Assembly (NCBI GenBank): GCA_965248755.1
Contig: OZ252149.1
Location: 2,944,001-3,008,000 of the forward strand
Source of the DNA: Candidatus Latescibacterota bacterium
Lineage (GTDB): Bacteria > Latescibacterota > CBDEFO01
Direction: 5' to 3'
Length of the DNA stretch: 64,000 nt
The notes under the pieces were generated by a model. It was not told the DNA's origin and ran no database searches. It was given only the letters and a program-made list of their open reading frames with translations. Shown here in pieces: positions 2,526 to 55,936 of the stretch (the first letter of the stretch is position 1; every line of letters starts with the position of its first letter). Both the position numbers and the translations under genes were made by a program.

Positions 2526-4037
2526 ATGAAGTTCAGATATACTATAATCCTTGCGGTTGTCTTTGCAGGTCTTCTTGCATTTGCGCTCCGCGATAAACGA
2601 CAGCGCCAGGAGAAAGAAGAGACAAAAAAGGAGGCGGAGAAGTTACTTATATTTGACAGAGATCAGGTGAGACGACTGACTCTGATCCGGGAGGATGAGA
2701 CCATTGTGGCAGAAAAGGAGGAGCCGGGAGAATGGAAGATAGTTTCCCCTGTCCAGACAGACGCTGACAACGACGCTGTTGAAAGGCTCATAGACAACAT
2801 TGGAAACACCCGAACGGATAGAGTCCTCGTAAAGGAGGTGGATGTAGAGGACGCAGAAGAGACACTCGAAGGATACGGTCTGGATAAACCCACTGTCGTT
2901 CTGCACATGGAGCTGGAAGGTGATGCGACGAGTACGTACGGTCAACTGGATACGGTTTACTATGGGGGAGAAAGCCCTACCAGTTCCTTTGCATACGTAA
3001 GGAAAGGGCAGAGTCTGGATATACTTACTATCCCGCTTTGGAGGAGGGATAATGTGGACAAGCAGCTTTTCGATCTGAGAGATCAAAGGGTGCTGGCGTT
3101 TCAAAGCGATGAAGTGAGACAATTAGATATCAAAAGGGCTGGTATTCTAATGTCGGTCTCCAAGTCGGGAAGTATGTGGAACATAGATAAACCCCTCCAG
3201 GACAGAGGTGACGTAGACGAGATAGATGAGATCATACGAAAGCTGAATCAGGAGAAGGTCAAAGAGTTTGTCAGCGAATCGTCTGACACGGGTGAGCTTG
3301 AGGGATACGGGCTTACAGATCCGCATATAGAGGTCACACTCTGGCTGGGGGCGGACAGAGCTAAGAAGATGCTATATATTGGAGCCGAAAAGCGTAGTGA
3401 TCTCTATGCCCAGGATAAAGAGGGCGCCGATCGCTACGCCAAGGACGAATCGAAGGAAGCTGTCTTTCTGATATCTTCCGAATTGAAGGAGGCCCTGGAG
3501 GTAGACCCCTTTGCGCTTCGATACAAAAAGTTAGCTGATTTCGAAAGCGACGATATAGACAAGGTGGAGTTCGCATACAAAGAAGAGGCGCCCACTCCGT
3601 CTAACGCGATCTTATGTGTGAAGGACACGTCTGGTAACTGGAGCGTGGCATTCTCATCTCCGATAGATTCAATCGGGAAAAAGAAAGATGCCACAGGCTG
3701 GAAGATTCGCGGTGCTATGAGTGATATAGCTGATCTCAAAGCTGAGAAGTTCCTCCCAGAGGAGTCTTCCGACACGGAGTCGCCCTCCCCGATTGCTTCT
3801 ATCGGGGATCAATCGGGGGGCGACCTGTCTCAGTACGGTCTTGAGCGCCCGCGCATCACCGTCAGATTGTGGAAGGGAGAGAAGCTGGTGGTCCAAGTCT
3901 TAGTCGGCAAGGGGAAGGATGAGTTCGTCTACGCCAAGACATCCCAAAGCGATAGGGTCTACCTTGTTAGAAAGAGTATAGTGGAGGATCTGACCTTCAC
4001 TATAGACGACATAGCAGTATCAGAAGGAGAGGCTTAA
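2526..4037 (+). CDS. DUF4340-domain membrane-anchored protein
   Basis: N-terminal TM helix and three repeats containing L(E/S)xYGL; carries two in-frame palindromic elements. Confidence 0.8.
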   Translation: MKFRYTIILAVVFAGLLAFALRDKRQRQEKEETKKEAEKLLIFDRDQVRRLTLIREDETIVAEKEEPGEWKIVSPVQTDADNDAVERLIDNIGNTRTDRVLVKEVDVEDAEETLEGYGLDKPTVVLHMELEGDATSTYGQLDTVYYGGESPTSSFAYVRKGQSLDILTIPLWRRDNVDKQLFDLRDQRVLAFQSDEVRQLDIKRAGILMSVSKSGSMWNIDKPLQDRGDVDEIDEIIRKLNQEKVKEFVSESSDTGELEGYGLTDPHIEVTLWLGADRAKKMLYIGAEKRSDLYAQDKEGADRYAKDESKEAVFLISSELKEALEVDPFALRYKKLADFESDDIDKVEFAYKEEAPTPSNAILCVKDTSGNWSVAFSSPIDSIGKKKDATGWKIRGAMSDIADLKAEKFLPEESSDTESPSPIASIGDQSGGDLSQYGLERPRITVRLWKGEKLVVQVLVGKGKDEFVYAKTSQSDRVYLVRKSIVEDLTFTIDDIAVSEGEA

Positions 4038-4045
4038 GGGAAGAA

Positions 4046-5032
4046 ATGGGCAAGGTACAAGCCGTAGTCTTTACAGCCGCGGCGGTTATGTTTATCTGGC
4101 TTTACCCTTCCTCCTGTCAAAGCAGCGTTTCTGTCAGGTCAGAGGTCGACAGGTCCACTATTACCGTCGGCGACCCTATCAAGTATACTCTTATTATCAC
4201 TTACGAAGAAGACCATAGGGTCTATCCTCCTCCTCTGGCCTCCAACCTCGGCCAGTTTGAGATCAAGGACTTCAAATATCCCCGGACTATACGTACAGAT
4301 GAGGGACTCCTCGAGGAGAGGACGGAATATACAGTAACCTCCTTCAGGACAGGTGACTTTCAGATACCTCCCCTAATAATTGGATTTGTCACAGCGGAGG
4401 GGGACAGCGGTTGGGTCGAGTCCGAGCCTATAGCGATCAGGATCCAGAGCGTGAATGTGGAGGGGGCTAAGGATATCCGCGATATTAAAGGCCCCGTTGA
4501 AATCCCGCAGGGAGTAAGGTCGTGGATGATCTGGAGCGGCGTTGCCCTGCTTGTAGCTACAGCGGGCGTGATCCTGCATATCTTGGCAAGTAGGAAAAAA
4601 AGACTGCAAGAAGATATAGCCACAGAGCCGGATGTCCCCATAGACGAACTTGGGGAGTTCGACAAGATAGATGCTCTGGGTCTGATAGAAAAGGGTCAGT
4701 ACAAAGAACATTATATATTGATCTCAGAGGCCCTCAGAAGATATATAGAGAGACGCTACAAAATAGAGGCTATGGAGAGGACTACCTATGAGCTTCTGGA
4801 CGATATGAACGATGCCAGGGCAGAACGTCTGATAGCGATAGAAAAAGAGCACATAGAGTCAATAAATGAGTTTCTCTCAGGATGCGATCTGGTCAAATTC
4901 GCCAAGTATATGCCTCGTTTAGAAGAAGCAAAAGGCTCTACACAAAGAGCCAGGGCCATCGTGAAGGATACATACATAAAGGAGTCTAAAGAACCGGACG
5001 AAGTCTTAGAATCCGAGGCTTCACGAGGATAG
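4046..5032 (+). CDS. Bat-operon associated membrane protein (BatD-like N-terminus)
   Basis: Signal peptide, ITVGDPI, IRDIK, TM helix, ERTTYE and DLVKFAK motifs; directly upstream of batA. Confidence 0.75.
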   Translation: MGKVQAVVFTAAAVMFIWLYPSSCQSSVSVRSEVDRSTITVGDPIKYTLIITYEEDHRVYPPPLASNLGQFEIKDFKYPRTIRTDEGLLEERTEYTVTSFRTGDFQIPPLIIGFVTAEGDSGWVESEPIAIRIQSVNVEGAKDIRDIKGPVEIPQGVRSWMIWSGVALLVATAGVILHILASRKKRLQEDIATEPDVPIDELGEFDKIDALGLIEKGQYKEHYILISEALRRYIERRYKIEAMERTTYELLDDMNDARAERLIAIEKEHIESINEFLSGCDLVKFAKYMPRLEEAKGSTQRARAIVKDTYIKESKEPDEVLESEASRG

Positions 5033-5042
5033 AATCGCTCTG

Positions 5043-6062
5043 ATGCGCTTTCAGAATCCATATCTACTTCTCCTTTTGCTGGCCATCCCGGTCATAATCT
5101 ATCGCTACATTAAGAGCGAAAAGAGCGGGACGATACGGTTCTCCGATATCGGCTCTATCAAGAGCATCAGACCCTCCCTCAAACTCCGGCATAGTCTCAT
5201 AGTCCTGAGATCCCTGGGATTAGGACTCTTGATCGTAGCTTTTGCGCGTCCGCAGTCTGGAACGGAAGAAAGAGAGATGCTCACAGAAGGAATAGACATC
5301 ATCCTGACGCTGGACGCATCGGGCAGTATGCAGAGCAAAGACCTGGACAGCAACAAAAAGTCCAGACTTGATGTCTCAAAAGAGGTCGTATCTGAGTTCG
5401 TGAATGGGCGCACAAATGATCGTTTGGGCTTGGTGGTCTTTGCCGGAAGGAGCGCTACGTGGTGTCCCCTAACGCTCGATTACGGGACTTTCTTGAATTT
5501 TCTGGACAGTGTGAGCATAGAGCAGCTCCAGGACATAGTAATGTCAGACAGCACAGCTATAGGCACCGCTATTGCTAACTCTGTAGCCCAGCTTGGAGAG
5601 AGTGAGGCCAAAAGCAAGGTTATTATACTCCTTACGGACGGATCCAACACCAAAGTGGAGCGCATCCCGAACACGGGGATTGTAATGGATCCTTTAACGG
5701 CGGCTCGTATCGCCGCCTCCCTCGGGATCAGAATATACACTATCGGAGCCGGAAGCAAGGGGACGATAATGCGAGAAGTGCAGGATATGTTCGGTGTGCG
5801 CTTGCTGCCCTACCGGGTCGAAATAGATGAAGAGACGCTGCAGAAGATAGCCGACATCACAGATGGGAAGTACTACAGAGCTACGAGCCAGGAGAAGCTT
5901 TCAGAGATCTACGAGGAGATAAGCCAACTGGAAAAGACCGAGATCAAGACCAAGGAGCATGTGGAATACACGGAGATATTCTCAAAGTTTGCGCTGGCAG
6001 GGCTATTTATGTTGCTGTTGGAGATATTTCTGGTAAATACGAGATTCAGGAAAATACCTTAA
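5043..6062 (+). CDS. batA: BatA-like VWA domain protein
   Basis: MRFQNP..., ARPQ, DASGSM MIDAS motif, LLTDG, IYTIG. Confidence 0.88.
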   Translation: MRFQNPYLLLLLLAIPVIIYRYIKSEKSGTIRFSDIGSIKSIRPSLKLRHSLIVLRSLGLGLLIVAFARPQSGTEEREMLTEGIDIILTLDASGSMQSKDLDSNKKSRLDVSKEVVSEFVNGRTNDRLGLVVFAGRSATWCPLTLDYGTFLNFLDSVSIEQLQDIVMSDSTAIGTAIANSVAQLGESEAKSKVIILLTDGSNTKVERIPNTGIVMDPLTAARIAASLGIRIYTIGAGSKGTIMREVQDMFGVRLLPYRVEIDEETLQKIADITDGKYYRATSQEKLSEIYEEISQLEKTEIKTKEHVEYTEIFSKFALAGLFMLLLEIFLVNTRFRKIP

Positions 6063-6064
6063 GT

Positions 6065-6200
6065 GCGGTAGACAGTAGTCAGGGCAAGCAAGTAGACAGC
6101 AAACAGTAGACAGTAGACAGGGGCACCACCGCCCTTCCCACCAGATTGCTTTGCAGTCCCCGATATAAGCAATCGGGGACTGCCCCTACAGATAAATTTA
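6065..6200. repeat. AGTAGAC heptamer cluster plus REP-like and 21-bp palindrome
   Basis: Related sequence at 22663-22725 and 26130-26190; palindrome ccccgatataagcaatcgggg near 6158. Confidence 0.6.
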
Positions 6201-6282
6201 GGGATCAGACAGCGTAGTTTGTCGCCTCCACTGCCTGACAACGCACGCGGTGGCAGCGGGACAACGGACCCGACGAAAGCAC

Positions 6283-7302
6283 ATGAACATGCATTTCGGA
6301 GAACCTGCATATTTTAACTTCTTGTGGCTCATTCCTGCGCTGATCATCTTCTATGTCTGGGCGTTCAGGAGAAAGAAGCGGGCGCTTTTCCTCTTCGGGG
6401 GCACGGAGCTTATAGACAAATTGGCGGCGTCCAGGAGCAGAAAGAGCCAGATATGGAAGGTGATCCTATCCATATTGGGCATCTTTTTCCTTGTCCTGGC
6501 CTTGGTGCGGCCTCAACTGGGAGCGAAGCTGAAATTAGGTCAAAGCAGGGGCGTGGATGTGGTCATACTCCTGGACACGTCCTTGAGCATGCTGTCGGAG
6601 GACATCAAACCGAACAGGCTGGAAAGGGCAAAATACGGCATCAGAGATCTAATAGATAAGCTGGGTGGGAATCGCATCGGGATAGTTTCCTTTGCCGGAG
6701 AAAGTTACATAGAGTGTCCGCTGACTTTAGATTACAGCACCGCTCAGAGTATCGTTGACGGTCTGGATACGACCTCTGTTCAGGGGACTGCTGTCGGCGA
6801 CGCTATACGGATGGCATCGTCCCTTTTCAATAAGAAGGACCTCAAGTACAAGGTGATGGTAATCTTTTCGGATGGAGAGAGCCACGAAAGCGACATCACA
6901 AGCGCAGCCGAAATAGCCACGGATGAGGGCGTCGTCATACATACTGTGGGAGTCGGTACAAAGAAGGGGGACGTTATCTCCTTCCGCCGGAAAGATGGAA
7001 ACGTAGAATATAAGAAGGATAGGGCAGGAAACGTGGTGGTTACAAGGCTGATGGAGAGCAACCTGCAAAGAATGGCTTTCCACGCCGGAGGTATCTATCA
7101 GAGCATGCGGGAGTTTGAGCCGGAGGAGATATACGAAGAGATCTCAAAGATGGAAAAGAAAGAACTGCAATCGAGAAAGTACACTAAATATGAAGACAGA
7201 TTTCAGTACGTCATAGTCTTCTCCATAGCCGCTTTTATTATAGAATCTATTATCAGTGACAGAAGGAGGCGGAAGGCGGAGTGGAAGGGGCGGTTCCAAT
7301 GA
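6283..7302 (+). CDS. batB: BatB-like VWA domain protein
   Basis: RPQLG, DTSLSM MIDAS, PNRLERAK, FSDGESH. Confidence 0.88.
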   Translation: MNMHFGEPAYFNFLWLIPALIIFYVWAFRRKKRALFLFGGTELIDKLAASRSRKSQIWKVILSILGIFFLVLALVRPQLGAKLKLGQSRGVDVVILLDTSLSMLSEDIKPNRLERAKYGIRDLIDKLGGNRIGIVSFAGESYIECPLTLDYSTAQSIVDGLDTTSVQGTAVGDAIRMASSLFNKKDLKYKVMVIFSDGESHESDITSAAEIATDEGVVIHTVGVGTKKGDVISFRRKDGNVEYKKDRAGNVVVTRLMESNLQRMAFHAGGIYQSMREFEPEEIYEEISKMEKKELQSRKYTKYEDRFQYVIVFSIAAFIIESIISDRRRRKAEWKGRFQ

Positions 7303-9269
7303 TCTATCGGGCGACTCGTCAGGTATACAACGTAAGATTAAGTGGAAAGGCAAGCGGAGCGTTGCCCTGTCTCCCCCGATTGCGTCTTTCGGGGGCAGGC
7401 CCTCGATTGAACCCCCGATTGTATCCATCTGGGACTACTATCTACTGTCTGCTGATACCTGTCTGCTGTATACTGATTTTGTCTCTGTCGTTTCCTGCCT
7501 ACACTGCTGACGTTAGCTTTCAGGCCTACGTGGACAAGAACAAGATCGGAACTACCGACCGGCTTAAGCTGATCGTATCGGTCTCGGGATCTAAGCTGGG
7601 CAGCCTCCCCAATCCGGTTCTCCCCAGTCTGAACGATTTTGCGGTGTCCGTCCCAAGACGAAGCTCATCTTCCAGCTATCAGTTCTCCACAGGCGGTAGT
7701 GCGGTATCCGCACAGAAATTAGAGTTTACGTATCATCTGCGCCCTCGGAGGAGCGGGAACCTGGTTATAGGTCCCGTGAAAATGGAGGTTAAGGGCGTGG
7801 AGTATGAGACTCGTCCTATTCAGATCCAAGTAGTCGAGGGAACCACTGAAACTGTGAGGACGCCGAGAGGTAGTCAAATACCGATAGAGGGAAATCTCTA
7901 TATGGAGGTGACTGCAGATAGACAGAGGGCATACGTGGGCGAGCAGATAACGCTGATCTACGACCTTTACAACAGATTCAGTATTTCAGACTTAAGATAC
8001 AACGCCGCCCCTGCGTATCAGGACTTCTGGGTTGAGGATATATTCGATTTTAGAACAAAGAGTCACCTGGAGAGCAGACGAGAGGCGATAGATAACCGAC
8101 TCTTTGAAGTAGCTCTTCTGAAAAAGGTGGCCGTCTTTCCGAAGGCTCCGGGTACTTTCAGGATAGAGCCTCTTAAGATAGAATGCGACATCCAGGTGAG
8201 AGGTGGGAGTAGGAGCATCTTTGACTTTGGTGGATTCTCCACAAGGACGAAGACCTTTTTAGTTCAGTCCGATCCCATCAGTGTGGAGGTTCTGCCGCTG
8301 CCACAAAGGGGAAAGCCGGGGGATTTTGACGTGCCTGTCGGCGACTTTTCCATCTCGGCTTCGACCGATCTGAAGACCGCTACAAAGGGGGATGCGATAT
8401 CCTTAAGGGTGGTCATATCGGGTGCGGGAAATGTAACTTCCATAAGGGAACTGAAGCCTCCTCTCTTGGACTCGTTCAAGGTCTACGATCCTAAAATAGA
8501 GGCAGAATCGAAGGCCGTAGACGGTATCATTCAGGGCACAAAGACATTCGAATATGTTCTGATACCTGAGACTGACGGCGATCTTCTGATAGCTCCCTTT
8601 GAGTTTTCTTACTTCGATCCTGCAAAAGAAAGGTATATAACGACTCAGACTTCCCCTCTGTCCCTCAGGATATCTCCTGTGTTAGAGACTGAGAAGGTTT
8701 CGGCGGGATATGGCCTTTCCCGCGAGGAAATAAAGTTAGTAGGGGAGGATATACGCTATATCAAGCCCGATTATAGAGGGGCAGAACGCCAGCTTGAGGA
8801 TCAGGGCCGACCCTTATACAAGGATATGCGTTTCTTATTCCTTCAGATAGTTCCCGTCATAACCCTGATCGGGGCCTGGACATACAAAAGGCACCTTGTG
8901 AAGGTTCGTACCGATGCTGCCTACGTCCGCAGGAAGAGGGCCAAAACTCAGGCCGCCAGGAGGCTCAAAAGGGCAAGGCAACTTATGAAAGATGAGTCAT
9001 CAGCCGAGTTCTACGCTGAGATCAACAGCGCTCTTTCGGAGTTTTTGGCGGATAAGCTCAATATCCCGGCTGCAGGGCTCACCAAAGATTCTATGGAGGA
9101 GCATCTACTGCAAAGAGGCGTAGACCAGGCATTGGTAGATAACCTGAAAGATACTCTAATCCGGTGTGACTTTGCGAGGTTTGCCCCCTCCCAATCTATG
9201 TCCGATGATTTGGAAACGCTCCTGAATAAGACCGAAAAGTCCATTGATCGTTTGGAAAAGCGAATTTAA
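7299..9269 (+). CDS. batD: BatD-like protein
   Basis: AYVGEQI, ISGAGN, DIRYIK, CDFARFAP motifs; ATG overlaps the batB stop; start uncertain because repeats occupy the 5' end. Confidence 0.85.
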   Translation: MIYRATRQVYNVRLSGKASGALPCLPRLRLSGAGPRLNPRLYPSGTTIYCLLIPVCCILILSLSFPAYTADVSFQAYVDKNKIGTTDRLKLIVSVSGSKLGSLPNPVLPSLNDFAVSVPRRSSSSSYQFSTGGSAVSAQKLEFTYHLRPRRSGNLVIGPVKMEVKGVEYETRPIQIQVVEGTTETVRTPRGSQIPIEGNLYMEVTADRQRAYVGEQITLIYDLYNRFSISDLRYNAAPAYQDFWVEDIFDFRTKSHLESRREAIDNRLFEVALLKKVAVFPKAPGTFRIEPLKIECDIQVRGGSRSIFDFGGFSTRTKTFLVQSDPISVEVLPLPQRGKPGDFDVPVGDFSISASTDLKTATKGDAISLRVVISGAGNVTSIRELKPPLLDSFKVYDPKIEAESKAVDGIIQGTKTFEYVLIPETDGDLLIAPFEFSYFDPAKERYITTQTSPLSLRISPVLETEKVSAGYGLSREEIKLVGEDIRYIKPDYRGAERQLEDQGRPLYKDMRFLFLQIVPVITLIGAWTYKRHLVKVRTDAAYVRRKRAKTQAARRLKRARQLMKDESSAEFYAEINSALSEFLADKLNIPAAGLTKDSMEEHLLQRGVDQALVDNLKDTLIRCDFARFAPSQSMSDDLETLLNKTEKSIDRLEKRI

Positions 9270-9294
9270 TCTTTCCGATATCTCATAACCCGTG

Positions 9295-10101
9295 ATGAAA
9301 TTCTTGATCTTCAGCCAAAAAGACGCCAAATCACTTCTCTCCCTCGTTGTCCTCCTTACTCTATTTTTCTTAATTGTATTTTCCGGGGTCTCAAGTTATG
9401 CATCCTCGGCCGCAACGGCTCTCTACAACGAGGCTAACAGGCTCTACAGAGATGGGGAGTACCTGGAGGCGGCAAAACAGTACGAGGCAATACTAAAGAC
9501 GGGGATACAAAATGGGGATGTCTATTACAACCTGGGAAACGCCTACTTTAAAAGTGGACGGATCGGAAGGGCTATTCTCTGGTACGAACGGGCCTTGAGG
9601 CTACGCCCCCGCGATGAGGATGTAAAACGGAACCTGAGATTTGCAAACCTGCGAAAGGTGGATAAAGACCTTCCATCGGACGCAAACATAGTGACAAGGT
9701 TCATTCTCGGGGTTCACAATCTCCTGACAGTAGACGAGCAGACGATTCTTTGCAGCGCTCTTTTCTATTCTATAACAGCTGCCATTGTTGCTCTTTTGTT
9801 CGCAGGCACCACAGTTCGAACCGCGCTGATAACGCTTCTTATCTGCTTCGGCGTCCTGTGGCTGGTTGCGGGAGTCTCCACGGCCGCCAAAATATATCGC
9901 AGCGAGTCTGAAGAGGAGGCTGTGGTAATTTCCCCTGACGCAGACGCTTTCAGCGGGCCGGGAGAGGACAACACGAAGATATTTACGCTCCACGAGGGTA
10001 CTAAAGTCACGATAGAGCGCCGAAGCCTGGAGTGGTTTCTCGTCCGTCTGTCCGACAACACTGAGGGGTGGATACAAAAAGAGGTAGTTGAGAAGATATA
10101 G
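9295..10101 (+). CDS. batE: BatE-like TPR plus SH3 protein
   Basis: YYNLGNAYFK TPR, LWYERALRL, two TMs, LHEGTKV...EGWI SH3. Confidence 0.88.
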   Translation: MKFLIFSQKDAKSLLSLVVLLTLFFLIVFSGVSSYASSAATALYNEANRLYRDGEYLEAAKQYEAILKTGIQNGDVYYNLGNAYFKSGRIGRAILWYERALRLRPRDEDVKRNLRFANLRKVDKDLPSDANIVTRFILGVHNLLTVDEQTILCSALFYSITAAIVALLFAGTTVRTALITLLICFGVLWLVAGVSTAAKIYRSESEEEAVVISPDADAFSGPGEDNTKIFTLHEGTKVTIERRSLEWFLVRLSDNTEGWIQKEVVEKI

Positions 10102-10421
10102 ACAAGGTCGTGTAGAGTTTACTGAGAATTACACTCTAACGAGTGAATTCTTTACATAGATCTTTGTCATTTCTCAAGCAGATAGAATGCAGTGGGAACG
10201 CTGCCTTTGGATAGACTGTCTTTATCTATCTTTCTTTTTGTGTCTGTCCAGTCTCAGTCTCTTTTTCCTTTTATGCGTCGCTATTTTCTTGCGTTTCTTC
10301 TTTTTACCGCAGGGCAAGGACTCGCACCTCCTTTCGATAGCCAGAATGTAGGGCTGTCCCCAATACAAAAAACGATAGACGAAATCGGGGACCTGTCTTT
10401 AACATTGTCACAGTTTTGAGG

Positions 10422-10706: not shown

Positions 10707-10749
10707 GTCGGTCCCTCCTTTTTCGGGCAAGAGGTCTTTGGTGAGAAAC

Positions 10750-11646: not shown

Positions 11647-11990
11647 GTCTTATTCTCCTAACTTAACAGAACACTGCAAGATAAAAGGACAATATAATAA
11701 ATATAACGTAACTGGCCTATTTGTCAACAGATTTACATTTAGCTGTCAGGGTAATGCAGTTCTCAGTCTGGAGGTGAGGCAGTACCAATTGAAGACAGAG
11801 TGGTTGAGGCCATCTCGTGGCTAGTTGCCTCTGTTCTCCCTTTACTTCTCATCGGTTCGCCCGAACGTAGAACGGTTCATCTGTAGGGCAGACCTGTGTG
11901 TTTTCTCCTGGTCGAGTGGTCCCCGATTGAATCTGTCGGGGATCGCCCCTACATTTTGTCTATCCTATGATCGAATCTATTGCGGATTGC

Positions 11991-12225
11991 TAACCCGATT
12001 AATTCATAAACTTGGTGGAGTCATTGCGAGGAGCAAAGCGACGAAGCAATCTCAAGGTTTTATAGTGGTCTCCTATGAGAGCCGGAGAGTATTACATCTA
12101 CCACAGAATCGAGATTGCTTCGCCTTCGGCTCGCAATGACACCGAAGGTGGTTAAACAGCATAACTATAATATAATACAATCCCTTAATTAATACACGGA
12201 CTTTTCTTGTGAATTATTCGGGCTA
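11991..12225. mobile_element. MITE-like element, copy 1
   Basis: Terminal inverted repeats TAACCCGATTAATTCA / TGAATTATTCGGGCTA; internal GTCATTGCGAG...CTCGCAATGAC inverted repeat; similar copy at 40412-40643. Confidence 0.75.
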
Positions 12226-12273
12226 AAGGGTCTTTGCTATCGGCCATGGCATAAGTTTCGCTTGTTTGCTTAC

Positions 12274-12681: not shown

Positions 12682-12735
12682 GTATAGAGACAGCTGGATA
12701 CCCCTCGGCAGTTAGCCAAGCCCCTGATGCTTGGT

Positions 12736-14926: not shown

Positions 14927-14974
14927 TGTTTTTCCTCTTCTTTGTCTCCGATTGAATCTATCGGGGATCGGGAA

Positions 14975-16594: not shown

Positions 16595-16818
16595 GGTTTG
16601 TCCTGTCAGTGTTCGTAGAAAAGATAGTCGTCAAAATGCAGCAATTATAGTGTAGGGGTTGGGTTAGCCAACCCTTGGGGCGAGTGATCCCCGATAGATT
16701 CAATCGGGGACGGCCCTACGAATACAGAACTACATATGTGCCTGACCCCTTCAGGGCTATTAGACGCCGATTTCTGACTACTTTGAGTCACAATGGAGCA
16801 CAGAAGAGGACTTCTCCT

Positions 16819-19239: not shown

Positions 19240-19453
19240 AGCTTCAACCTGCCGAAAGGATAGCACCGCCTGACTTATGAAGTAAAGCTATAAATTCACA
19301 GTTTTAAAAGACTAAGTGCAGTGTCACAAGCTTGCCTATCACAGCAGGATGTTGGGAGCAAACCCGAAATCTGGAGGCCCTTGGGGCGAGTGATCCCCGA
19401 CCCCCAATTGAATCTATTGGGGGCTCAATCGGGGACGCCCCTACGAATACACA

Positions 19454-22680: not shown

Positions 22681-22955
22681 ACAGTAGACAGGGCACCGCC
22701 TCCCATCCCGCCGGATTGCTTCGGGGTGAAGTCCCTCTTGAGCAAGAGGGCTGAATCTCCTGGCAATGACTACGAGTCGGGACAAGCAGGGCTATGTGCC
22801 CCTGAACTATCATTCTGAGCGATAGGCAAGCAATCTCGCAGTGATTAGTCAGGATGTAGGGGCGAGGCCTGCCCCCGAATGATTCTATCGGGGGTCCACT
22901 CGCCAAAAGGGGCCTGGGTAATACAGCCCCCCATCATCTATAAGGAGGTAGCCGA

Positions 22956-23726: not shown

Positions 23727-23788
23727 CTTTATGCCCGATAAAATAATCGGGGCTGCCCGATAAAATCAATCGGGGAAAGGAGAAACCT

Positions 23789-27594: not shown

Positions 27595-27770
27595 AGTGAG
27601 ATTGCTTCGCCCACTTCGTGGCTTGCTGCCACTCCGCCTCGCAATGACGTTGCTTGGCTTCGTCCTTCGGTCATTGCCAGGGGCATTTGCCTCGAGTGCC
27701 CGATAGACTCAATCGGGGACCGCTTTGCTCCTCGCAATGACTCCACCAAGTTTATGCTTAATCGGGTTAG
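27595..27770 (-). mobile_element. Partial MITE-like element and GTCATTGCGAG-type repeats
   Basis: 27720-27770 is the reverse complement of the left end of 11991-12225; interrupted by a 21-bp palindrome near 27699. Confidence 0.65.
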
Positions 27771-35171: not shown

Positions 35172-35198
35172 CTGGATTCCCGTTTCCACGGGAATGAC
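35172..35198. repeat. ATTCCC-N8-GGGAAT palindrome (dRS3-like pattern)
   Basis: ctggATTCCCgtttccacGGGAATgac. Confidence 0.6.
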
Positions 35199-40357: not shown

Positions 40358-40367
40358 TTTAACTTGC

Positions 40368-46320: not shown

Positions 46321-46336
46321 CGTCATATCCTTTAGT

Positions 46337-47281: not shown

Positions 47282-47297
47282 CGTGATAGTCTTTAGT

Positions 47298-48341
47298 TCA
47301 GTTCGAGAAGGTTGCTTTGATGCGTCCCCAGGTGTCAGACTTAACTGCTGTCCAGATCCCAGGCTCAAAATCAAGCAGGATGTAATCATTAAACTCATCC
47401 GCATGGTACTCGCCGCCGGCGAAACTGCTAGACCACCAACCTCCGTCGTAGCCTAATTCATCGGGATTGTCACTATCCTTAACGGCAAAGACGAGTCCTA
47501 CGATCTCTCCCGCTGCAAGGGTGTGTACTACGCTCTGATCAATACCTTCATAATTCAGGTCGTCAAACGGAGTGACGGCTATCTCTACAGTCTGGACGCC
47601 TTCCCCACCTACGGTGCCGTCAAGACTCCAGCCGATGTCGGCATAAGGAGGCTTAACTGCCCATGTGGCCGCCCCCCAATACCAGAGCGGATCCTCTCTG
47701 TTCAGAAAATAGCGATAGTTCTGAGCTAGAGATCCGTCCCACCTGTCTGCATCAATGTCTGACGTAGACATGGACATGTACCGTCCACCGCTGTGGTCAG
47801 TATCGATGCCAAATTCGAGGTGTTCGTTACGGTCGTCAGCAGTTAAGCGGGCGTTAGAGTGGTCGTTAGATCCGTCCCACCCGGCCGGATCCACGTCCTG
47901 TAAACCCGAGGACATGAACCGTCCACCGCTGTGGTCCGCATCGATGCCAAATTCGATGTTTTCCTGACGGTCGTCAGCAGTTAACCGTGCATTAGAGAAG
48001 TCGTCAAATCTCTCCTCCCACATATAGATCATGTTGGTCACGGGACTCCATCCTATGACTACCTTCACGGCGAGGCTGGCGGGGTTCGGCACAGGAAACC
48101 CCCCTTTGACGACCTCTTTCAGATCATCGTGCGTTAAATAGTACTGTCGAGGAAGCAATTGCCACTCGGAGCCATCACCGTCGAGTACAATCGTCCGCGT
48201 ACCAGCGTGCATCCCCGGAGTCCCATCAATGGGCAACATGGGAGCGACAAAGGTCTCATCTAACCTCAGGTGAGCCGACCCCATCGAAATAATAAACAGG
48301 AGAACTCCCAGTACCGTAAATATCGCAAATGGTGTTTTCAT
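47298..48341 (-). CDS. Secreted DOMON/CBM9-like protein with TWGRIK tail (array gene 3)
   Basis: Paralog with an internal duplication of the SNARLTADDR...WDGS module. Confidence 0.8.
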   Translation of the reverse strand: MKTPFAIFTVLGVLLFIISMGSAHLRLDETFVAPMLPIDGTPGMHAGTRTIVLDGDGSEWQLLPRQYYLTHDDLKEVVKGGFPVPNPASLAVKVVIGWSPVTNMIYMWEERFDDFSNARLTADDRQENIEFGIDADHSGGRFMSSGLQDVDPAGWDGSNDHSNARLTADDRNEHLEFGIDTDHSGGRYMSMSTSDIDADRWDGSLAQNYRYFLNREDPLWYWGAATWAVKPPYADIGWSLDGTVGGEGVQTVEIAVTPFDDLNYEGIDQSVVHTLAAGEIVGLVFAVKDSDNPDELGYDGGWWSSSFAGGEYHADEFNDYILLDFEPGIWTAVKSDTWGRIKATFSN

Positions 48342-48357
48342 CGTTATATCCTTTAGT

Positions 48358-49278
48358 TCAGTTCGAGAAGGTTGCTTTGATGCGGCCCCAGGTGTCAGAC
48401 TCAACTGATGACCCATCCAATGTCACCCATTGTTCCGGATCGAAAGGAAGTAGAGTGAAGTCATTGAAGGTATCCGCATTTTGGAACACATGCGCGCCTC
48501 CGACCGTATAGTAGCCACCGTTACCTTGTTGGATGCCAATTTGTTCCTCGTCCGGTCCAGCGAGATAGTCAGTGTCTTCAACGGTAAAGCCTATTCCGAT
48601 GATTTCTCCCTCTTTCAGGGTGTGTACTACGCTCTGGTCGATACCTTCAGGGTTCAGATCGTCAAACGGCGTCACGGCCATCTCCACAATCAGGTTGCCC
48701 GAGTCACCCAGCTCGCCATCAAAGCTCCAGCCGAACTCGGAATACGGAGACACGTTTACCCACGTAGCTGCTCCCCACAACCAGACCGGATCCTCTCCGA
48801 TCACAAAATATTGCCAATGCTGAGCATGAGATGAGCCGTGCCTGTCCGGATCCACATCCAACCCGAAGTTTTGGAACCGTCCTCCGCTGTGGTCAGCATC
48901 CACGCCAAACGCAACCGTCTCCTCAATGTAGTACATTTTCCAACCGACATAAACATCGTCAAATCTATCCTCAAACCAGTATATCTTGTTGGTCACCGGA
49001 CTCCATCCTATAATTATCCGCAAGGCGAGGTCAGAGGGGTCTATAGCCTCTGACCATTCCCCGATCATTATCAGATCCTCGTGCGTTATCCAGAACGACG
49101 GGTCAATATTTGCCCACTCGCTGGTATCACCGTCTGGTATAAACTCGCTGAACCCAGGCCTACCAATAGGCACCTGGACAGCGACAAAGGTCTTATCTGA
49201 CCGTAGGTGAGCAGAACTCTCCACGACAGCAAGAAATACAAATCCCAGTGCTGTAAATATACAAAACAGTGTTCTCAT
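48358..49278 (-). CDS. Secreted DOMON/CBM9-like protein with TWGRIK tail (array gene 2, most divergent)
   Basis: GWSPVTNKIY, DADHSGG, TPFDDLN, TWGRIKATFSN. Confidence 0.8.
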   Translation of the reverse strand: MRTLFCIFTALGFVFLAVVESSAHLRSDKTFVAVQVPIGRPGFSEFIPDGDTSEWANIDPSFWITHEDLIMIGEWSEAIDPSDLALRIIIGWSPVTNKIYWFEDRFDDVYVGWKMYYIEETVAFGVDADHSGGRFQNFGLDVDPDRHGSSHAQHWQYFVIGEDPVWLWGAATWVNVSPYSEFGWSFDGELGDSGNLIVEMAVTPFDDLNPEGIDQSVVHTLKEGEIIGIGFTVEDTDYLAGPDEEQIGIQQGNGGYYTVGGAHVFQNADTFNDFTLLPFDPEQWVTLDGSSVESDTWGRIKATFSN

Positions 49279-49294
49279 CGTTATATCCTTTCCC

Positions 49295-50320
49295 TCAGTT
49301 GGAAAACGTTGACTTGATGCGGCCCCAGGTGTCAGATTCAACCGCTGTGCCGGGCACCCAGATACTCGGATCAAAATCAAGCAGAATGTAATCAGTAAAC
49401 AAATCGGCATCGCCCTTGTACCCTGACGCTGAGTTGTGACTGATAGACCACCAGCCTCCGTCGTAACCAGGATCATCGGGATTGTCATTGTCCTTAACGG
49501 CAAAGACGATGCCTACGATCTCTCCCGCTGTAAGGGTGTGTACTACGCTCTGATCAATACCTTCAGAATTCAAGTCGTCAAACGGAGTGACGGCCAACTC
49601 TACAGTCTGGACGCCTTCCCCACCTACTTCGCCATCAAAACTCCAGCCGATGAAGGCATAAGGAGGCTTAACTGCCCACGTGGCCGAACCCCAATGCCAG
49701 ATGGGTTCCTCCCTGTTCAGATAATAGCGATAGTTCTGAGCATGAGATCCGTCCCATCTGGCTGGATCAATGTCCTCTGTATACAGCTTCATGTACACTC
49801 CTCCGCTGTGGTCAGCATCGATGCCAAATGCGAGGTGTTCATTACGGTCGTCAGCAGTTAAGCGGGCGTTAGAGTGGTCGTCAGATCCGTCCCACCTGGC
49901 CGGATCCACGTCCTGTGAATAAAACACGTACCTTCCTCCGCTGTGGTTAGCATCGATGCTAAATTCGAGGTGTTCATTACGGTCGTCAGCAGTTAAGCGG
50001 GCATTAGAGTGGTCGTCAAATCTCTCCTCTAAAAAATAGATCATGTTGGTCACCGGGCTCCATCCTATGGCAACTTTCACGGCGAGGCTGGCGGGGTTCG
50101 GCGTATCAAATCCCCCCTTGATGGTCTCTTTCAGATCATCGTGCGTTAAATAGTACTGTCGAGGAAGCAATTGCCACTCGGACCCATCACCGTCCACTTC
50201 AATATCGTCGGGAACCCTGGGAGCGACGAAGGTCTCATCTAACCTCAGGTGAGCCGACCCCATCGAAACAGTAAAAAGCACGAATCCCAGAGCTGTAAAT
50301 ATCGCAAATAGTGTTTTCAT
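49295..50320 (-). CDS. Secreted DOMON/CBM9-like protein with TWGRIK tail (array gene 1)
   Basis: Paralog with the internal module duplication. Confidence 0.8.
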   Translation of the reverse strand: MKTLFAIFTALGFVLFTVSMGSAHLRLDETFVAPRVPDDIEVDGDGSEWQLLPRQYYLTHDDLKETIKGGFDTPNPASLAVKVAIGWSPVTNMIYFLEERFDDHSNARLTADDRNEHLEFSIDANHSGGRYVFYSQDVDPARWDGSDDHSNARLTADDRNEHLAFGIDADHSGGVYMKLYTEDIDPARWDGSHAQNYRYYLNREEPIWHWGSATWAVKPPYAFIGWSFDGEVGGEGVQTVELAVTPFDDLNSEGIDQSVVHTLTAGEIVGIVFAVKDNDNPDDPGYDGGWWSISHNSASGYKGDADLFTDYILLDFDPSIWVPGTAVESDTWGRIKSTFSN

Positions 50321-50357
50321 TGTGATATCCTTTCGCTGGGAATAATTAACAGGGATC

Positions 50358-53132
50358 CTACTTCATCAAAACCAGCTTCTTCGACTGCCCAAATCCCTCC
50401 GTCTTCAAGCGATACAGATAGACCCCACTGGCAAGACTTTTACCATTGTCATCTTTGCCATTCCATATTACGGAGTAGCTACCGACTGATCTGTAACCAT
50501 CCACCAACGTTGCAACCTTATGTCCCATCAGATTGAACACAGATAGCTCAACGTGACTTTGGACAGGAAGGTCATAGTGGATCACTGTTTGGTGGTTGAA
50601 GGGATTGGGATAGTTCTGGGCTAGGGAGTAAGCTTCAGGAACGTTTAATGATGGTTCTTCATACTCTGTTACAGCAGTGATAGGTATATCAGAAAGATTC
50701 ATCAACACTGACACATTACCGCTGCTAAAATTACCTACGGCCAGATCATTATCTCCATCCCCGTCCAAATCTGCACTGAATACTGACCGCGGTTCGTCCC
50801 CAACTGCATAGTCCACTCTGGCTGCAAATTGCCCAGCTCCATTATTCAAAAACACTGATACAATGTTGCTGAACCTATTGGCCACAGCTAAGTCACTATC
50901 TCCATCTCCATCTAAATCTGCGCTGAATACTGATGTGGGAAAATCTCTTGTAGGACCAATATCAGTGGAGTAGTCCACATTAGTTGCAAATGAACCATCC
51001 CCATTGTTAAACAAAACCGATATATTATCGCTGAATACATTAGCCACAGCTAAGTCATTATCTCCATCCCCGTCTAAATCTGTACTTAATACTGATATGG
51101 GACCGTTCCCAGCGGCGTAGTCCACCTTGCCTGCAAATGTCCCATCTCCATTATTCATTAACACTGAAACATTATCGCTATACATATTAGCTACAGTTAG
51201 ATCATCATCTCCATCCCCATCTAAATCTGCACCAAATACTGCACTAGGAGAATACCCAGCGGTATAGTAAACCCCGTCTGCAAAAGTCCCATCTCCATTA
51301 TTCAATAACACCGAGACAGAACCGGGACCAAATCCCCTATTAGCCACAGCAAGATCATTATCTCCATCTCCATCTAAATCTGCACCGAACACTGAATTGG
51401 GACTAGCCCCGATACCGTACTCCACCTGAGGTGCAAATGTTCCGTCTCCATTATTCAATAACACCGAAAGAGTACTGGCTTGGTGACCAGAGCCCGCATT
51501 AGCTACAGCCAGGTCATTATCTCCATCACCGTCTAAATCCACGCTGAATACTGAATAGGGATCAAACCCAGCAGCATAGTCCACCTTAGGTGCAAACGTC
51601 CCATTTCCATTATTTAGCAGCACTGACACTCTAGCCGTAACTAGGTCATTGTCTCCATCCCCATCTAGATCCGCAATAAAGACTGAACCCCAAGCAGGAT
51701 AGGCAGTTGGGTGTCCAAAAAGGGGAGGAACAAAAGCAAATCTGTCAAAGAGCGTATCGGCCTGACTGTCGGGATTTGTGACTATTACATCCACAGTACC
51801 GACAGGAAGAGCAGGAGTCGTAGCAGTAATGCTCTGGGTGGTCACTGCGACTACATCTGTGGCTGTGCTATTTCCAAAAGTGACAGTTGTTCCTCTCTGG
51901 AAATCCCTCCCTGCTATTGTCACACGGGCACTTCTCAGTTCTACGCCAAGAGTGGGATTAATAGATGTGACAACAGGGGGAGCAGGAGGAGGCGCCACAG
52001 AGAGATTCAACAACACTGACACACTATCAGACACATAATCGAGGCCTCGACTAGCTACAGCCAAGTCATTATCCCCATCTCCATCTAAATCTGCAATGAA
52101 CACTGATCTGGGACTATACCCGACAACATAGTTTATCCTAAGTCCAAACGTCCCATCTCCATTATTTAACAACACGGATACGTCATTGCCGCCGAACCCT
52201 TTAGCTACAGCCAGGTCATTAGCTCCGTCCCCATCCAAATCCGCAATGAAGACTGATGTGGGACTATGCCCGACAAAATAGTCGACCTTTGTTGCGAATG
52301 TCCCATCTCCCTTGTTCATCAGCACCGATACATTATCGACAGCAATGTTAGCCACAGCCAGGTCATTATCCCCATCACCATCTAAATCCGCACTGAAAAC
52401 GGCTTCAGGGCGATACCCAGTCGGATAGTCCACCTTAGATGCAAATGTTCCATCCCCATTATTCATCAACACCGATACATTATCGTTGAGCCAATTCGTG
52501 ACCACTAGATCATTATCTCCATCACCATCTAAATCCGCGCTAAACACTGAAGAGGGAGCGTCTCCAGCGGTATAGTCCACTTTAGGTGCAAACGTCCCAT
52601 CCCCATTATTCGTTAACACTGATACATTACTGATATTCCCAGAGAGAGCTCTATTAGCCGTGATTAAGTCGTTATCCCCATCTCCATTTAGATCGGCAAT
52701 GAAAACCGATGAAGAACTATTCGAAGAACTATTCCCAGTGGCATAGTCCACCTTATGTGCAAATGTCCCATCCCCGTTATTCATTAACACTGAAACATTA
52801 TCGCTCCAAATATTAGCTACAGTTAGATCAATATCTTCATCCCCATCTAAATCTGCACTGAATACTGATATGGGAGCGGTCCCAGCGGCGTAGTCCACCT
52901 TGCCTGCAAATGTCCCATCTCCATTGTTTAACAACACTGATACAGTACGGCTGCCTTCATTAGCCGTGATTAAGTCGTTATCCCCATCTCCATTTAGATC
53001 GGCAATGAAAACCGATGAAGGACCGTTCCCAGTGGCATAGTCGACCTTAGGTGCGAAAAGACCTTGCGCATAGACAGGCGCATTCAAAGCGACTAACAGC
53101 ATCAGAGCTGTATACAAGATTCCCTGTCTCAT
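50358..53132 (-). CDS. Secreted protein with two FG-GAP propellers, IPT/TIG domain and FlgD/T9SS-like CTD
   Basis: Signal peptide, about 14 FG-GAP repeats, VTSINP..GTTVTFG..VTNPD, LAQNYPNPFN..WNGKD..SGVYLYRL. Confidence 0.92.
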   Translation of the reverse strand: MRQGILYTALMLLVALNAPVYAQGLFAPKVDYATGNGPSSVFIADLNGDGDNDLITANEGSRTVSVLLNNGDGTFAGKVDYAAGTAPISVFSADLDGDEDIDLTVANIWSDNVSVLMNNGDGTFAHKVDYATGNSSSNSSSSVFIADLNGDGDNDLITANRALSGNISNVSVLTNNGDGTFAPKVDYTAGDAPSSVFSADLDGDGDNDLVVTNWLNDNVSVLMNNGDGTFASKVDYPTGYRPEAVFSADLDGDGDNDLAVANIAVDNVSVLMNKGDGTFATKVDYFVGHSPTSVFIADLDGDGANDLAVAKGFGGNDVSVLLNNGDGTFGLRINYVVGYSPRSVFIADLDGDGDNDLAVASRGLDYVSDSVSVLLNLSVAPPPAPPVVTSINPTLGVELRSARVTIAGRDFQRGTTVTFGNSTATDVVAVTTQSITATTPALPVGTVDVIVTNPDSQADTLFDRFAFVPPLFGHPTAYPAWGSVFIADLDGDGDNDLVTARVSVLLNNGNGTFAPKVDYAAGFDPYSVFSVDLDGDGDNDLAVANAGSGHQASTLSVLLNNGDGTFAPQVEYGIGASPNSVFGADLDGDGDNDLAVANRGFGPGSVSVLLNNGDGTFADGVYYTAGYSPSAVFGADLDGDGDDDLTVANMYSDNVSVLMNNGDGTFAGKVDYAAGNGPISVLSTDLDGDGDNDLAVANVFSDNISVLFNNGDGSFATNVDYSTDIGPTRDFPTSVFSADLDGDGDSDLAVANRFSNIVSVFLNNGAGQFAARVDYAVGDEPRSVFSADLDGDGDNDLAVGNFSSGNVSVLMNLSDIPITAVTEYEEPSLNVPEAYSLAQNYPNPFNHQTVIHYDLPVQSHVELSVFNLMGHKVATLVDGYRSVGSYSVIWNGKDDNGKSLASGVYLYRLKTEGFGQSKKLVLMK

Positions 53133-53394
53133 TGATAGGTCTCCCTTTCTATACAGTCAGAGTTGTTGTCGGGCTCCTTCGTTACGACCAGAGTAAGAAT
53201 AAAACCTGATCGTGGCATCTTCTGTCACAGTCCTCCACGACTCTGCCCTCTATTCTTTGTATGTCCGTAATGCAGTATTTACGGACATACTTAAGCTCTC
53301 ATCTCCGGAGAGCTCAGTGCCGCAACTATCGCAAATATCATTTTCATAGTGATAATCCTTTCGCTCACAGGATTCAGAACTGTTACATTAGTCT

Positions 53395-54999
53395 CTACTG
53401 TTTTCCTGTCAGCCATTCGCGGACGATCTGCTTTTGTATCTTCCCCACGGAGGTGCGAGGCAGGGCGTCTATGAACTCCACTCTGCCGGGCACTTTGAAG
53501 GGTGAGAGACGTTCTGCACAGTGCGCCTGAACTGTCTCGGCGGTCAGGTCGGCTTCGGGCTTGGCGACTATCACCGCCACAACGGTCTCGTCTCGGAACT
53601 CATCGGACATGCTGACGACGCAGACATCCAGCACGCCGGGGCAGTCTGCAATTACAGCTTCCACCTCCACGCTGGAGACATTCTGCCCCGCTCGCTTGAT
53701 CAGGTCTTTGCCGCGATCTACAAAGTAGAGGAAGCCGTCTTCGTCTGCATAGGCCGTGTCACCTGAATATAGCCAGGTCCCATCGGGCATCTGGCGGAGC
53801 GTCTCCCCAGTCGCCTGCGGGTTCTTGAGATAACCGAGCATGATGGAGCGTCCCGGCGTCCCGCGCACTATCAGTTGGCCCTGCTGGCCCGGTTCAACTT
53901 CTTGTCCATCGTCATCTACGAGCTTTATCTGATAGCCCAATACAGGGCGCCCCATCGCCAGCAGATTCCGTTTCCCTGAGAGTGGACTCATAATCGGGAG
54001 GCCGCACGTCTCGGTCATCCCCCAGATTTGCTGGAGGGGGCAGGAGAATCTGCTGTGCCACTGGTCGTACTGCTCGGCCGTAAGATTCTGCGCAAAGGTC
54101 AAATTCCTGAGGGAATGGGCATTGTCCGCGGGGCGTTCGGGCTGATTCAGGAGCATCCTTAAGGGCGCGCCGAAGAGCGCCGCCAGCGTGCATTCGTACT
54201 TTTGGGCCTGCTCGAAGAAGCGGCTGGCGCTGAACCTGGGCATCACCGCGACGCTTGCGCCTGCTATCAAGGACGGCCAGAGGGCGTGACAGTGGGCGCC
54301 GCCGTGGAAGAAGGGGAGTGTGATCAGATGGCGGTCTTCCGCCCGAATGCCTGACCCCGCTCGAAAGACCTCAGCTCCATAAACAAGAGCCGCGTTGGTC
54401 TGCATGACGCCCTTAGGGCGCGCAGTCGTGCCTGAGGTGTACATCAAATTTACAGTCCTGTCAGACGCGCCCTCGCCCGGCGGTGGTTCTGGGGACTGAG
54501 CCGCAAGCTGGATTTCGTAGAGGGGGTGTTCTGAATTGCTTGCCGGCTGGCTGTCCGCGTCATCAGGGTTTGAAGTTCCCGTCTGGCAGAGCAGGACCTG
54601 ACGCACTGGCAGCCCGGCTGCAACTTCCCGAACCGCGTCCAGACTCCCCGCCTCGGTAAAGATGATCTCACTTGCGGAATGTGCGACTATATATGCCAGT
54701 TCGTCTGCGGTGGACTTTGGATTGGACGGCACGGCGATAGCGCCCAGATACGAGGCGGCCAGGAGAAGCTGAGGATAGGCCGGGTGATTGGGAAGATGCA
54801 GAATGAAGCCGTCTCCCGTTCCGATTCCCAGCTTATTCAAGAGGTTGGCGGCCCGATGGATGCTCTCCAGAAACTCTGCATACGTCCAGGAGAAGACCTG
54901 ACCGTCGGCGCGCTCATAGACGAGCCACGTCCGCTGCGGCTGATGCGCTGCATATGCCGCGAATATCGAATAGAGGGTCCGGTTTCCAGCAATGTCCAT
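53395..54999 (-). CDS. AMP-dependent CoA ligase (CaiC-like)
   Basis: YTSGTTARPKGV, WGMTET, SGD, DRGKDLIKRAGQNVS, LPRTSVGK. Confidence 0.9.
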   Translation of the reverse strand: MDIAGNRTLYSIFAAYAAHQPQRTWLVYERADGQVFSWTYAEFLESIHRAANLLNKLGIGTGDGFILHLPNHPAYPQLLLAASYLGAIAVPSNPKSTADELAYIVAHSASEIIFTEAGSLDAVREVAAGLPVRQVLLCQTGTSNPDDADSQPASNSEHPLYEIQLAAQSPEPPPGEGASDRTVNLMYTSGTTARPKGVMQTNAALVYGAEVFRAGSGIRAEDRHLITLPFFHGGAHCHALWPSLIAGASVAVMPRFSASRFFEQAQKYECTLAALFGAPLRMLLNQPERPADNAHSLRNLTFAQNLTAEQYDQWHSRFSCPLQQIWGMTETCGLPIMSPLSGKRNLLAMGRPVLGYQIKLVDDDGQEVEPGQQGQLIVRGTPGRSIMLGYLKNPQATGETLRQMPDGTWLYSGDTAYADEDGFLYFVDRGKDLIKRAGQNVSSVEVEAVIADCPGVLDVCVVSMSDEFRDETVVAVIVAKPEADLTAETVQAHCAERLSPFKVPGRVEFIDALPRTSVGKIQKQIVREWLTGKQ

Positions 55000-55094
55000 A
55001 TTTAGACCTCAGGAGACAGGGTATGGCCTTTCCTCCAAGCCGTTATTGCGAGGAGGCGTGCCCCCGAATGATTCAATCGGGGACTCCGCTATAC

Positions 55095-55853
55095 CTACAT
55101 TTTATCGTGATAATACTCCAATATCGTCTCTATTCCAGCAAGGTGGGCGTCCACCCTTGCTCTCAGAGGCAGACCTGTCGGACTTTCCAAGGCTATGGCG
55201 TGATCCGTGTGGTTTTCCCAGGTATGCGAGCGCATCGAGTGATAACGCGGATCGTCTGAGTACATCTCCTGAGTTATCATGCCGTCCGATGCAGCTACCT
55301 GGTCTATGACCGTATCTCTATTTATGGGACAGATGTCTTCCACTGTTTCGATGATCCTCCCGCCTATCAGTTCTCCCGATCTCCTCTGTTCATAGAGGTA
55401 GAACCCCACGCTGTCGTAATCCTCGTGCAGGTCTATGATCACGTGAAAGCGACGCCCCGACAGTGACTCCTTTATCATAACCGCCTCAGAAGTCTCGTCA
55501 GTCTTAAAGGTGCGGTTTATGTCCGCGCCGTCGCTGTTATCGCGCCTATTGTGCACGTAGCCGTGCGGGTTGTTGCAGGGGTAGATCAAAAAGTTGAAGC
55601 CATCTACAAGTTGGGTATTTCCCTGCTCCAGAAACTCAAGGAGGGCCTCGACTCCCGCGGGCTCGTCTCCGTGTATGCCGGCACAGATCAGGACAGACTT
55701 TGCCTCTGTTGTGGCGGATTCCAGCTCCCCGATAGAGTCATTCGGGGACAACTCCAGCGTGAGTATCGGATAGCCGCCTGCCGTCCCGATCACTTTCCTG
55801 TGCGCAGGGAGTTTGTCTATCCTGCTGAGGAGATCGTTGTAGTCTCGGAGCAT
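55095..55853 (-). CDS. M14-family zinc carboxypeptidase / desuccinylase-like protein
   Basis: AGIHGDE, NPHG, DINR, IDLHED; carries an in-frame palindromic element. Confidence 0.88.
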   Translation of the reverse strand: MLRDYNDLLSRIDKLPAHRKVIGTAGGYPILTLELSPNDSIGELESATTEAKSVLICAGIHGDEPAGVEALLEFLEQGNTQLVDGFNFLIYPCNNPHGYVHNRRDNSDGADINRTFKTDETSEAVMIKESLSGRRFHVIIDLHEDYDSVGFYLYEQRRSGELIGGRIIETVEDICPINRDTVIDQVAASDGMITQEMYSDDPRYHSMRSHTWENHTDHAIALESPTGLPLRARVDAHLAGIETILEYYHDKM

Positions 55854-55936
55854 ATTATTAAGTCAGTAGAGGGGTTGTAGGGGGCGAGTTGATCCCCGAT
55901 AGGTTCAATCGGGGACGCAATATGACAGACACGTTA

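Follow-up and report, generated by a model that had tools for sequence, protein, structure and literature searches.

A mobile 23-base hairpin in a Latescibacterota genome, with in-frame copies inside predicted proteins

Can a palindrome of some twenty bases be a mobile element, and how do copies of it come to be read in frame inside proteins? The question is raised by a 64,000-nucleotide stretch of Candidatus Latescibacterota bacterium (assembly GCA_965248755.1, contig OZ252149.1, positions 2,944,001 to 3,008,000; hereafter the window), in which a short hairpin recurs between genes and also inside two intact open reading frames (ORFs), a DUF4340 gene and an M14/AstE-like peptidase gene. A preliminary description, made from the letters alone, had taken it for a 21-bp frame-preserving mobile micro-repeat that adds short loops to proteins. 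We compared the source genome (4.54 Mb) with a second genome of the same genus (96% complete; hereafter the congener). The hairpin is real and mobile, and both filled and empty alleles were seen. Our reading, to which we give a probability of about 0.7, is that it is a gene-less mobile 23-base element that has inserted hundreds of times, usually with net gains of 19 or 27 bases, and that its in-frame copies are likely survivors of selection.

The window holds 16 matches to CCCCGAT-N7-ATCGGGG with at most two mismatches, where 0.35 were expected and none of 100 shuffles reached 16, and the source genome holds 572 copies within four mismatches of CCCCGATAGATTCAATCGGGG; the motif is thus commoner than chance. 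Arms 7 bases apart gave 237 exact matches and 200 with a single mismatch, compared with maxima of 16 and 24, both at spacing 3, among the other spacings from 3 to 12. In the 572 copies the base flanking CCCCGATAGATTCAATCGGGG on each side was likewise constrained, and in 540 unique copies this outer pair covaried, being T-A in 241 and C-G in 166. Therefore, we conclude that the unit is 23 bases, Y-CCCCGATAGATTCAATCGGGG-R, and not 21; a net gain of 21 bases was found in just one of 66 non-coding gains. The predicted fold has an 8-pair stem and a 7-base loop (z ~ -3), and at stem positions 6 and 18 a pairing-preserving double change was present in 31 copies, with 5.2 double changes expected. Rfam gave no match in the window at gathering score. 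A contig of public run X1, probably derived from the source sample, was identical to window positions 3000-5752, with zero differences. Eleven of the 15 positions listed earlier were exact; the copies at 23755 and 27698 had each been placed one base off, that at 23733 is a copy but one base short, and at 19395 lies the outer arm of an older copy, with a new one nested in it at 19402. Copies at 7413 and 57944 had been overlooked.

The source genome was compared with 2.79 of the ~4.6 Mb of the congener, ~39% of which lay outside the comparison. Alignable copies numbered 295 of 572 in the source genome and 295 of 364 in the congener (215 copies there have the exact pattern), and 47 in each were dropped as multi-copy or below 70% identity. 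Lineage-specific copies occupied 53 of 248 comparable sites in the source genome and 55 of 248 in the congener (~21%), which agrees with a mobile repeat as first described. With the longer allele taken as the gain, an assumption at most sites, the 66 non-coding net gains included +18 six times, +19 fourteen times (the mode), +20 seven times, +21 once and +27 four times; +18 to +20 together made up 27 of them, and the remainder were mostly longer and composite-looking. In the +19 class the 23-mer takes the place of four target bases; in the +27 class it is accompanied by CCTG or CTTG, or by a duplication of about four bases. Across events, loss of target bases was commoner than duplication. The unit gained is a single hairpin at a single site, not the inverted doublet that defines a REPIN. 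Among 12 clean +19 events, selected by eye from 17, an NCGN word was replaced in six and at least one end base matched the target in 11 (p = 8e-4), a post hoc observation that suggests short microhomology. At some junctions the stem was extended by an inverted copy of the flank.

Genes of the source genome were called with our own hexamer caller (3545 genes, 80% coding). The 572 copies fell into 469 intergenic (82%), 24 across gene ends and 79 within genes, 53 of the last being mid-gene; under a stricter mid-gene rule the count was 42 of 437 copies, compared with 3328 of 5000 random positions (two thirds). Context at the variable sites was judged by gene calls on the empty allele: 10 of 11 coding events had net gains divisible by three, against 21 of 66 non-coding events (Fisher p = 3e-4) and 8 of 12 at gene edges. 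The lone coding exception is a +19 copy that frameshifts the last 55 codons of a gene in the congener. Since 45 of the 66 non-coding gains are off the triplet, the frame is kept in genes and is not a property of the element, contrary to the preliminary description. A 19-base sister hairpin, CCCCCGATTWAATCGGGGG (40 copies in the source genome, e.g. C1:3931143), gave a net +15 in the two events seen; 13 of its 40 copies are mid-gene, a few weak matches and two duplicates included, compared with the 42 of 437 (p = 2e-4). Because gains keep frame in genes and not outside them, and because the sister with its net +15 is commoner in genes, frame preservation looks like selection, and the copies read in frame within proteins are likely the selected minority that survived. 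When the 53 mid-gene copies were translated, 17 read as PIESIG-like, 13 as PIDSIG-like, 13 as PRLNLSG-like and 9 as PDRFNRG-like peptides; these four stop-free frames account for 52 copies, and the remaining one is in a frame with a mutated stop. Genome-wide, then, genic copies use four frames and not one.

In the window, SPIDSIG forms residues 378-384 and SPIASIG residues 421-427 of the product of ORF 2526-4037, and SPNDSIG forms residues 36-42 of that of ORF 55095-55853. All three are in frame, as described, but SPIDSIG comes from the opposite hairpin orientation to the other two; the peptides are alike because the hairpin is near-palindromic. That they are insertions was borne out by alignment of homologues. 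The DUF4340 segment at the 3658 copy has 23 residues, 7 more than the 16 found in 12 of 12 other aligning homologues (14 examined), and the composite at 3787 adds 11 residues relative to the congener, whose empty allele there is shared by runs X4 and X5, which may belong to the congener's species. The M14 loop has 25 residues, whereas 65 of 66 homologues have 14-17 and the congener, where the bases are unrelated, has 23; either the hairpin replaced 17 bases from an earlier insert (net +6), or 27 bases were inserted independently at the same spot. Both DUF4340 inserts and the M14 insert map to loops between predicted secondary-structure elements, as the idea of added short loops would have it; their low pLDDT partly reflects missing alignment support and is no proof of disorder. 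The copy noted in the batD leader proved to be two (7374 and 7413), and the 12-base difference from the congener keeps the frame from ATG 7299, the presumed start codon of the presumably translated leader. In all, a few dozen proteins of the source genome have gained short loops from the hairpin.

Many targets are themselves repeats. Forty-five percent of the 469 intergenic copies lay no more than 40 bases from three other repeat motifs, compared with 9% of random intergenic sites; a hairpin insert was held by 30 of 131 GTCATTGCGA...GCAATC units, and 79 of 497 unique copies were nested in an older copy. Few copies in the source genome have another within 120 bases. Window sites 16689 and 19395 represent one context in the single and the nested state. 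A CCTG or CTTG tag stood 5′ of 64 of the 497 unique copies (13%), ~7-fold above background, with the hairpin behind it in both orientations. GTAG was present on 32 of 1080 ends (540 copies), largely where an AGTAGAC repeat is the host, and CGTC was not among the common flanks of the 540 copies. Regions between convergent genes were not enriched (59 of 469 intergenic copies versus 635 of 5000). One copy is carried in a multi-copy insertion-sequence-like element (C1:863046, at least 14 other places in the source genome), of which an empty form is also present (net +20); hitch-hiking thus accounts for the spread of some copies. Degenerate arrays of the AGTAGAC 7-mer, as at window 6062-6125 and 7430-7470, are frequent insertion targets of the hairpin; such arrays also lie on either side of a four-helix-bundle gene that has an internal stop (L295).

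Table 1. Hairpin copies and their host genes in the window
Feature	Position	Strand	Remarks
DUF4340 host gene, 503 aa	2526..4037	+	
Hairpin copy in DUF4340 gene, SPIDSIG	3657..3679		common to congener; +7 residues vs homologues
Composite insert in DUF4340 gene (core 3787-3807 + second arm)	3785..3821		displaces 4 bases of congener allele; net +33
Intergenic copy adjoining CCCCTAC (GTAGGGG-type) arm	6157..6179		common to congener
Copy pair (7374, 7413) in likely BatD signal-peptide leader	7373..7434		12 bases longer than congener allele
Intergenic copy within GTAGGG...CCCCTAC repeat	11920..11942		
Intergenic copy between purH and mreB	14945..14967		longer nested form in congener
Consensus copy; single state of context doubly filled at 19395	16688..16710		
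Nested pair	19394..19435		new 23-mer (core 19402-19422) displaces 4 bases of older copy
CCTG-tagged 27-base form	22868..22894	+	
Tandem pair, one copy a base short	23733..23776		not in congener; net +43
Copy within CTCCTCGCAAT-type repeat	27697..27719		not in congener; net +28
Intergenic copy	55061..55083		
M14/AstE-like host gene, 252 aa	55095..55853	-	
Copy in M14 gene with GTTG tag-like tetranucleotide, SPNDSIG	55722..55748	-	not in congener; net +6
Intergenic copy upstream of M14 gene	55893..55915		
Decayed copy	57943..57965		

Beyond the genus, the exact pattern was absent from a further 29 genomes of the phylum. In a scan across species genomes, at least 93 loci with the hairpin were found; among the 80 matches listed, one assembly titled Ca. 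Latescibacterota supplied 64, Deltaproteobacteria 8, a PVC-group bacterium 5, Bacteroidales 1 and unclassified bins 2. Each of five genomes among these matches held 20-105 copies of CCCCGA-N9-TCGGGG, and copies lay within long open frames there too (e.g. L128, L236). Of 96 genomes belonging to another class, 11 had a GTCA-tagged form, GTCATCCCCGARTGNNTNTATCGGGG, and the spacer of GTCA-tagged dimers contained free 23-mers in 4 of 30. At locus L283, GTCA-tagged hairpins stand on both sides of a frameshifted Ssn-like gene of the GIY-YIG nuclease type; compared by eye, they are 3 bases from the consensus of the source genome and 2 from a common variant. The published SRM pattern was matched by none of the 572 hairpin copies and none of 30 GTCA-tagged relatives. 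Viral contigs gave zero exact hairpin matches and three matches for the GTCA-tagged form, and plasmids gave no match for one 121-base query. In a PVC-group genome, an Ssn-like gene (L243:1200-2100) lies amid GTCATTGCGA...GAAGCAATC repeat arrays, several with different small hairpin inserts.

A RAYT/IS200-like or GIY-YIG gene flanked by the motif had been suggested as something to look for; none was found in either genome. No Y1_Tnp domain scored above cut-off in either genome (a decayed fragment in the source genome has no hairpin nearby), nor was a RAYT gene flanked by the hairpin found in either. Among GIY-YIG, Y1_Tnp, reverse transcriptase, DUF559 and four-helix-bundle genes, none was common to both genomes and hairpin-flanked; the last three types each occur in only one of the two, the source genome having two reverse transcriptases. 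The ~61 genes with a hairpin on both sides within 250 bases looked by eye like ordinary host genes. In five other hairpin-bearing genomes, the GIY-YIG genes at the four loci read had no flanking hairpin. In the congener, inverted canonical NTS-type hairpins enclose an intact Ssn-like GIY-YIG gene of 107 aa (L101:1410-1770). Six canonical NTS-like motifs in the source genome (C1:2714208, 2979198, 3031451, 3547895, 1272113 and 1852134) precede ~20 codons that match the upstream end of this Ssn-like ORF, the remainder of the gene being absent; C1:2979198 lies in the window, near 35198. A ~240-base repeat at window 11991-12230 with GTCATTGCGAG...GAAGCAATC ends, which has dozens of matches in the congener, some hairpin-bearing, looks like a gene-less element with Ssn-type ends.

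As to how the hairpin moves, we put at somewhat under even odds a single-strand transfer into stem-loop DNA that carries a nick, with a GIY-YIG nuclease working in trans. Whether or not it bears a CCTG/CTTG tag, the hairpin would move as single-stranded DNA, and host repair would join it, by one or two bases of microhomology, into a nick in an extruded stem-loop or in single-stranded DNA. The nick would likely be made in trans by a small GIY-YIG nuclease of the Ssn family, not necessarily retained in the genome; such a nuclease is likely because the hairpin appears to be the stem-loop of the GTCA-tagged repeat that flanks a gene of this kind. A wider extension, which we regard as rather doubtful, would make it a minimal mobile DNA spanning phyla: a bare hairpin, detached from Ssn-target repeats and inserted without a transposase but with a single-strand GIY-YIG nuclease in trans, that exchanges a 23-base stem-loop for ~4 bases and steadily adds new loops to proteins.

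Several observations weigh against our reading. Gain and loss are unpolarised at most sites, with two genomes only, and the coding sample is just 11 events, on gene calls from our own caller. No cognate enzyme was found, the sole GIY-YIG protein of the source genome having 608 aa, and the Ssn-like gene of the congener is flanked by NTS-type hairpins, not by the 23-base hairpin. Of five Ssn-like loci examined, one (L283) has the hairpin type, with the gene frameshifted, and no Ssn gene lies within 1.5 kb at any of the 30 other GTCA-tagged loci. Copies near GTCATTGCGA lie inside that repeat, with none within 23 bases upstream. According to Chenal 2025 (PMC11893778), Ssn cuts single-stranded DNA upstream of its motif; because the copies fall inside the GTCATTGCGA repeat, insertion at an Ssn cut upstream of these repeats was rejected and simple capture at such a cut is unsupported.

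The main rivals of single-strand transfer with a nuclease in trans are two. The first, which we consider unlikely, does without a dedicated enzyme: template switching or microhomology-assisted illegitimate recombination at extruded hairpins, with existing copies or incoming DNA as template. It would account for the lack of a mobiliser common to both genomes, for the variable junctions, the nested copies (79 of 497) and the preference for other stem-loops, and for the inverted flank copies that lengthen the stem; however, amplification is confined to particular hairpin sequences that have fixed ends and a recurring tag, and distant groups have amplified the same sequence, which speaks for sequence-specific recognition. 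The second, quite unlikely in our view, is a REP-like hairpin (REP, repetitive extragenic palindrome) moved in trans by an HUH tyrosine transposase (RAYT or IS200/IS605 type) that would use CCTG/CTTG as its guide tetranucleotide. The 5′ tetranucleotide on 64 of 497 unique copies and several clean +27 insertions without duplication suit a transposase of this type, but no Y1_Tnp is above cut-off in either genome, target bases are lost in most events and, on our reading, no fixed tetranucleotide precedes the tagged insertions.

An RNA intermediate with target-primed reverse transcription is improbable: junctions vary, with loss or duplication of target bases, and the source genome has two reverse transcriptases, but none was found in the congener, which has as many lineage-specific copies, and the hairpin stands in both orientations behind its tag. 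A hairpin built to keep frame, as a 21-base unit adding seven residues, is more improbable still. The three in-frame window copies, the exactly seven added residues at 3658 and the frame-preserving +27 and +18 forms speak for it, but it is largely refuted by the non-coding gain lengths (mode +19; 45 of 66 off triplet), and one coding insertion shifts the frame while 82% of copies lie between genes. That the hairpin is a host signal (protein-binding site, terminator or uptake sequence) accumulating by point mutation is scarcely credible, despite dyad symmetry about a GANTC core that is intact in 403 of 540 copies, given that copies arrive as whole insertions, convergent intergenic regions are not enriched and GANTC is unbiased in the genome (rho 1.02), although some copies may later have been put to use by the host. 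A link of the hairpin to GANTC methylation was likewise rejected, given this lack of bias.

The hairpin works like the small dispersed repeats (SDRs) of cyanobacteria, like intragenic REPs and, at a smaller scale, like Rickettsia palindromic elements. SDRs of Nostocaceae, attributed to Elhai et al. in 2008, are reportedly ~20-30 bases long with in-frame copies in genes; like the hairpin, they are mobile, very short and dispersed, occur as filled and empty sites and have no known mobiliser. They have other sequences and hosts, and SDR5 targets HIP1 (passages of PMC5861425), whereas CGATCG is depleted in the source genome (rho 0.56). GTAG- and CGTC-tagged REPs are described in passages of Di Nocera 2013 (PMC3733652) as 20-40-base palindromes, hundreds of copies strong and mostly intergenic, with some copies within ORFs. 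The hairpin, a palindrome in this size range, is like the REPs described there in copy number, intergenic bias, copies wholly within ORFs and a tetranucleotide at one end; it differs in having no GTAG or CGTC tag in its unit, CCTG/CTTG on 13% of copies, mostly singlets and no RAYT. The term CCTG does not occur in the main text of PMC3733652.

NTS/Ssn motifs (PMC11893778) share with the hairpin a rarity inside genes, and at L283 a GTCA-tagged stem-loop that differs from it by 2-3 bases flanks an Ssn-like gene; the free hairpin differs in having no GTCA leader, which cleavage requires, and that paper demonstrates cutting, not mobilisation. Rickettsia palindromic elements are likewise palindromic and are read in frame as part of conserved proteins, apparently with little harm, but according to Delihas 2008 (PMC2229807) they measure 105-146 bases, much longer than the 23-27 here, as had been pointed out, and the modal hairpin insertion breaks the frame. 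Miniature inverted-repeat transposable elements and Rickettsia palindromic elements, characterised by ~100-200 bases, terminal repeats and a fixed target duplication, do not accommodate a 23-27-base hairpin. No description of this hairpin family was found in the literature, in a search thin on subscription journals.

The family offers a junction rule (23 bases for ~4, or +27) for repeats of 20-30 bases that have neither terminal repeats nor a transposase next to them, and a measured filter on coding insertions, with a sister of another length that behaves as the filter predicts; the candidate nuclease family already has an assay. PIDSIG, PIESIG, PDRFNRG and PRLNLSG in predicted proteins should be read as repeat-derived loops, not as functional motifs. 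Elsewhere in the window, a DDE_Tnp_1_4 (IS1380-type) transposase gene lies between two PorP/SprF-like genes (60629-62026). Several words are depleted in the source genome, CTAG to rho 0.25 and GTCGAC, CTCGAG, CAGCTG and CGATCG to 0.46-0.56.

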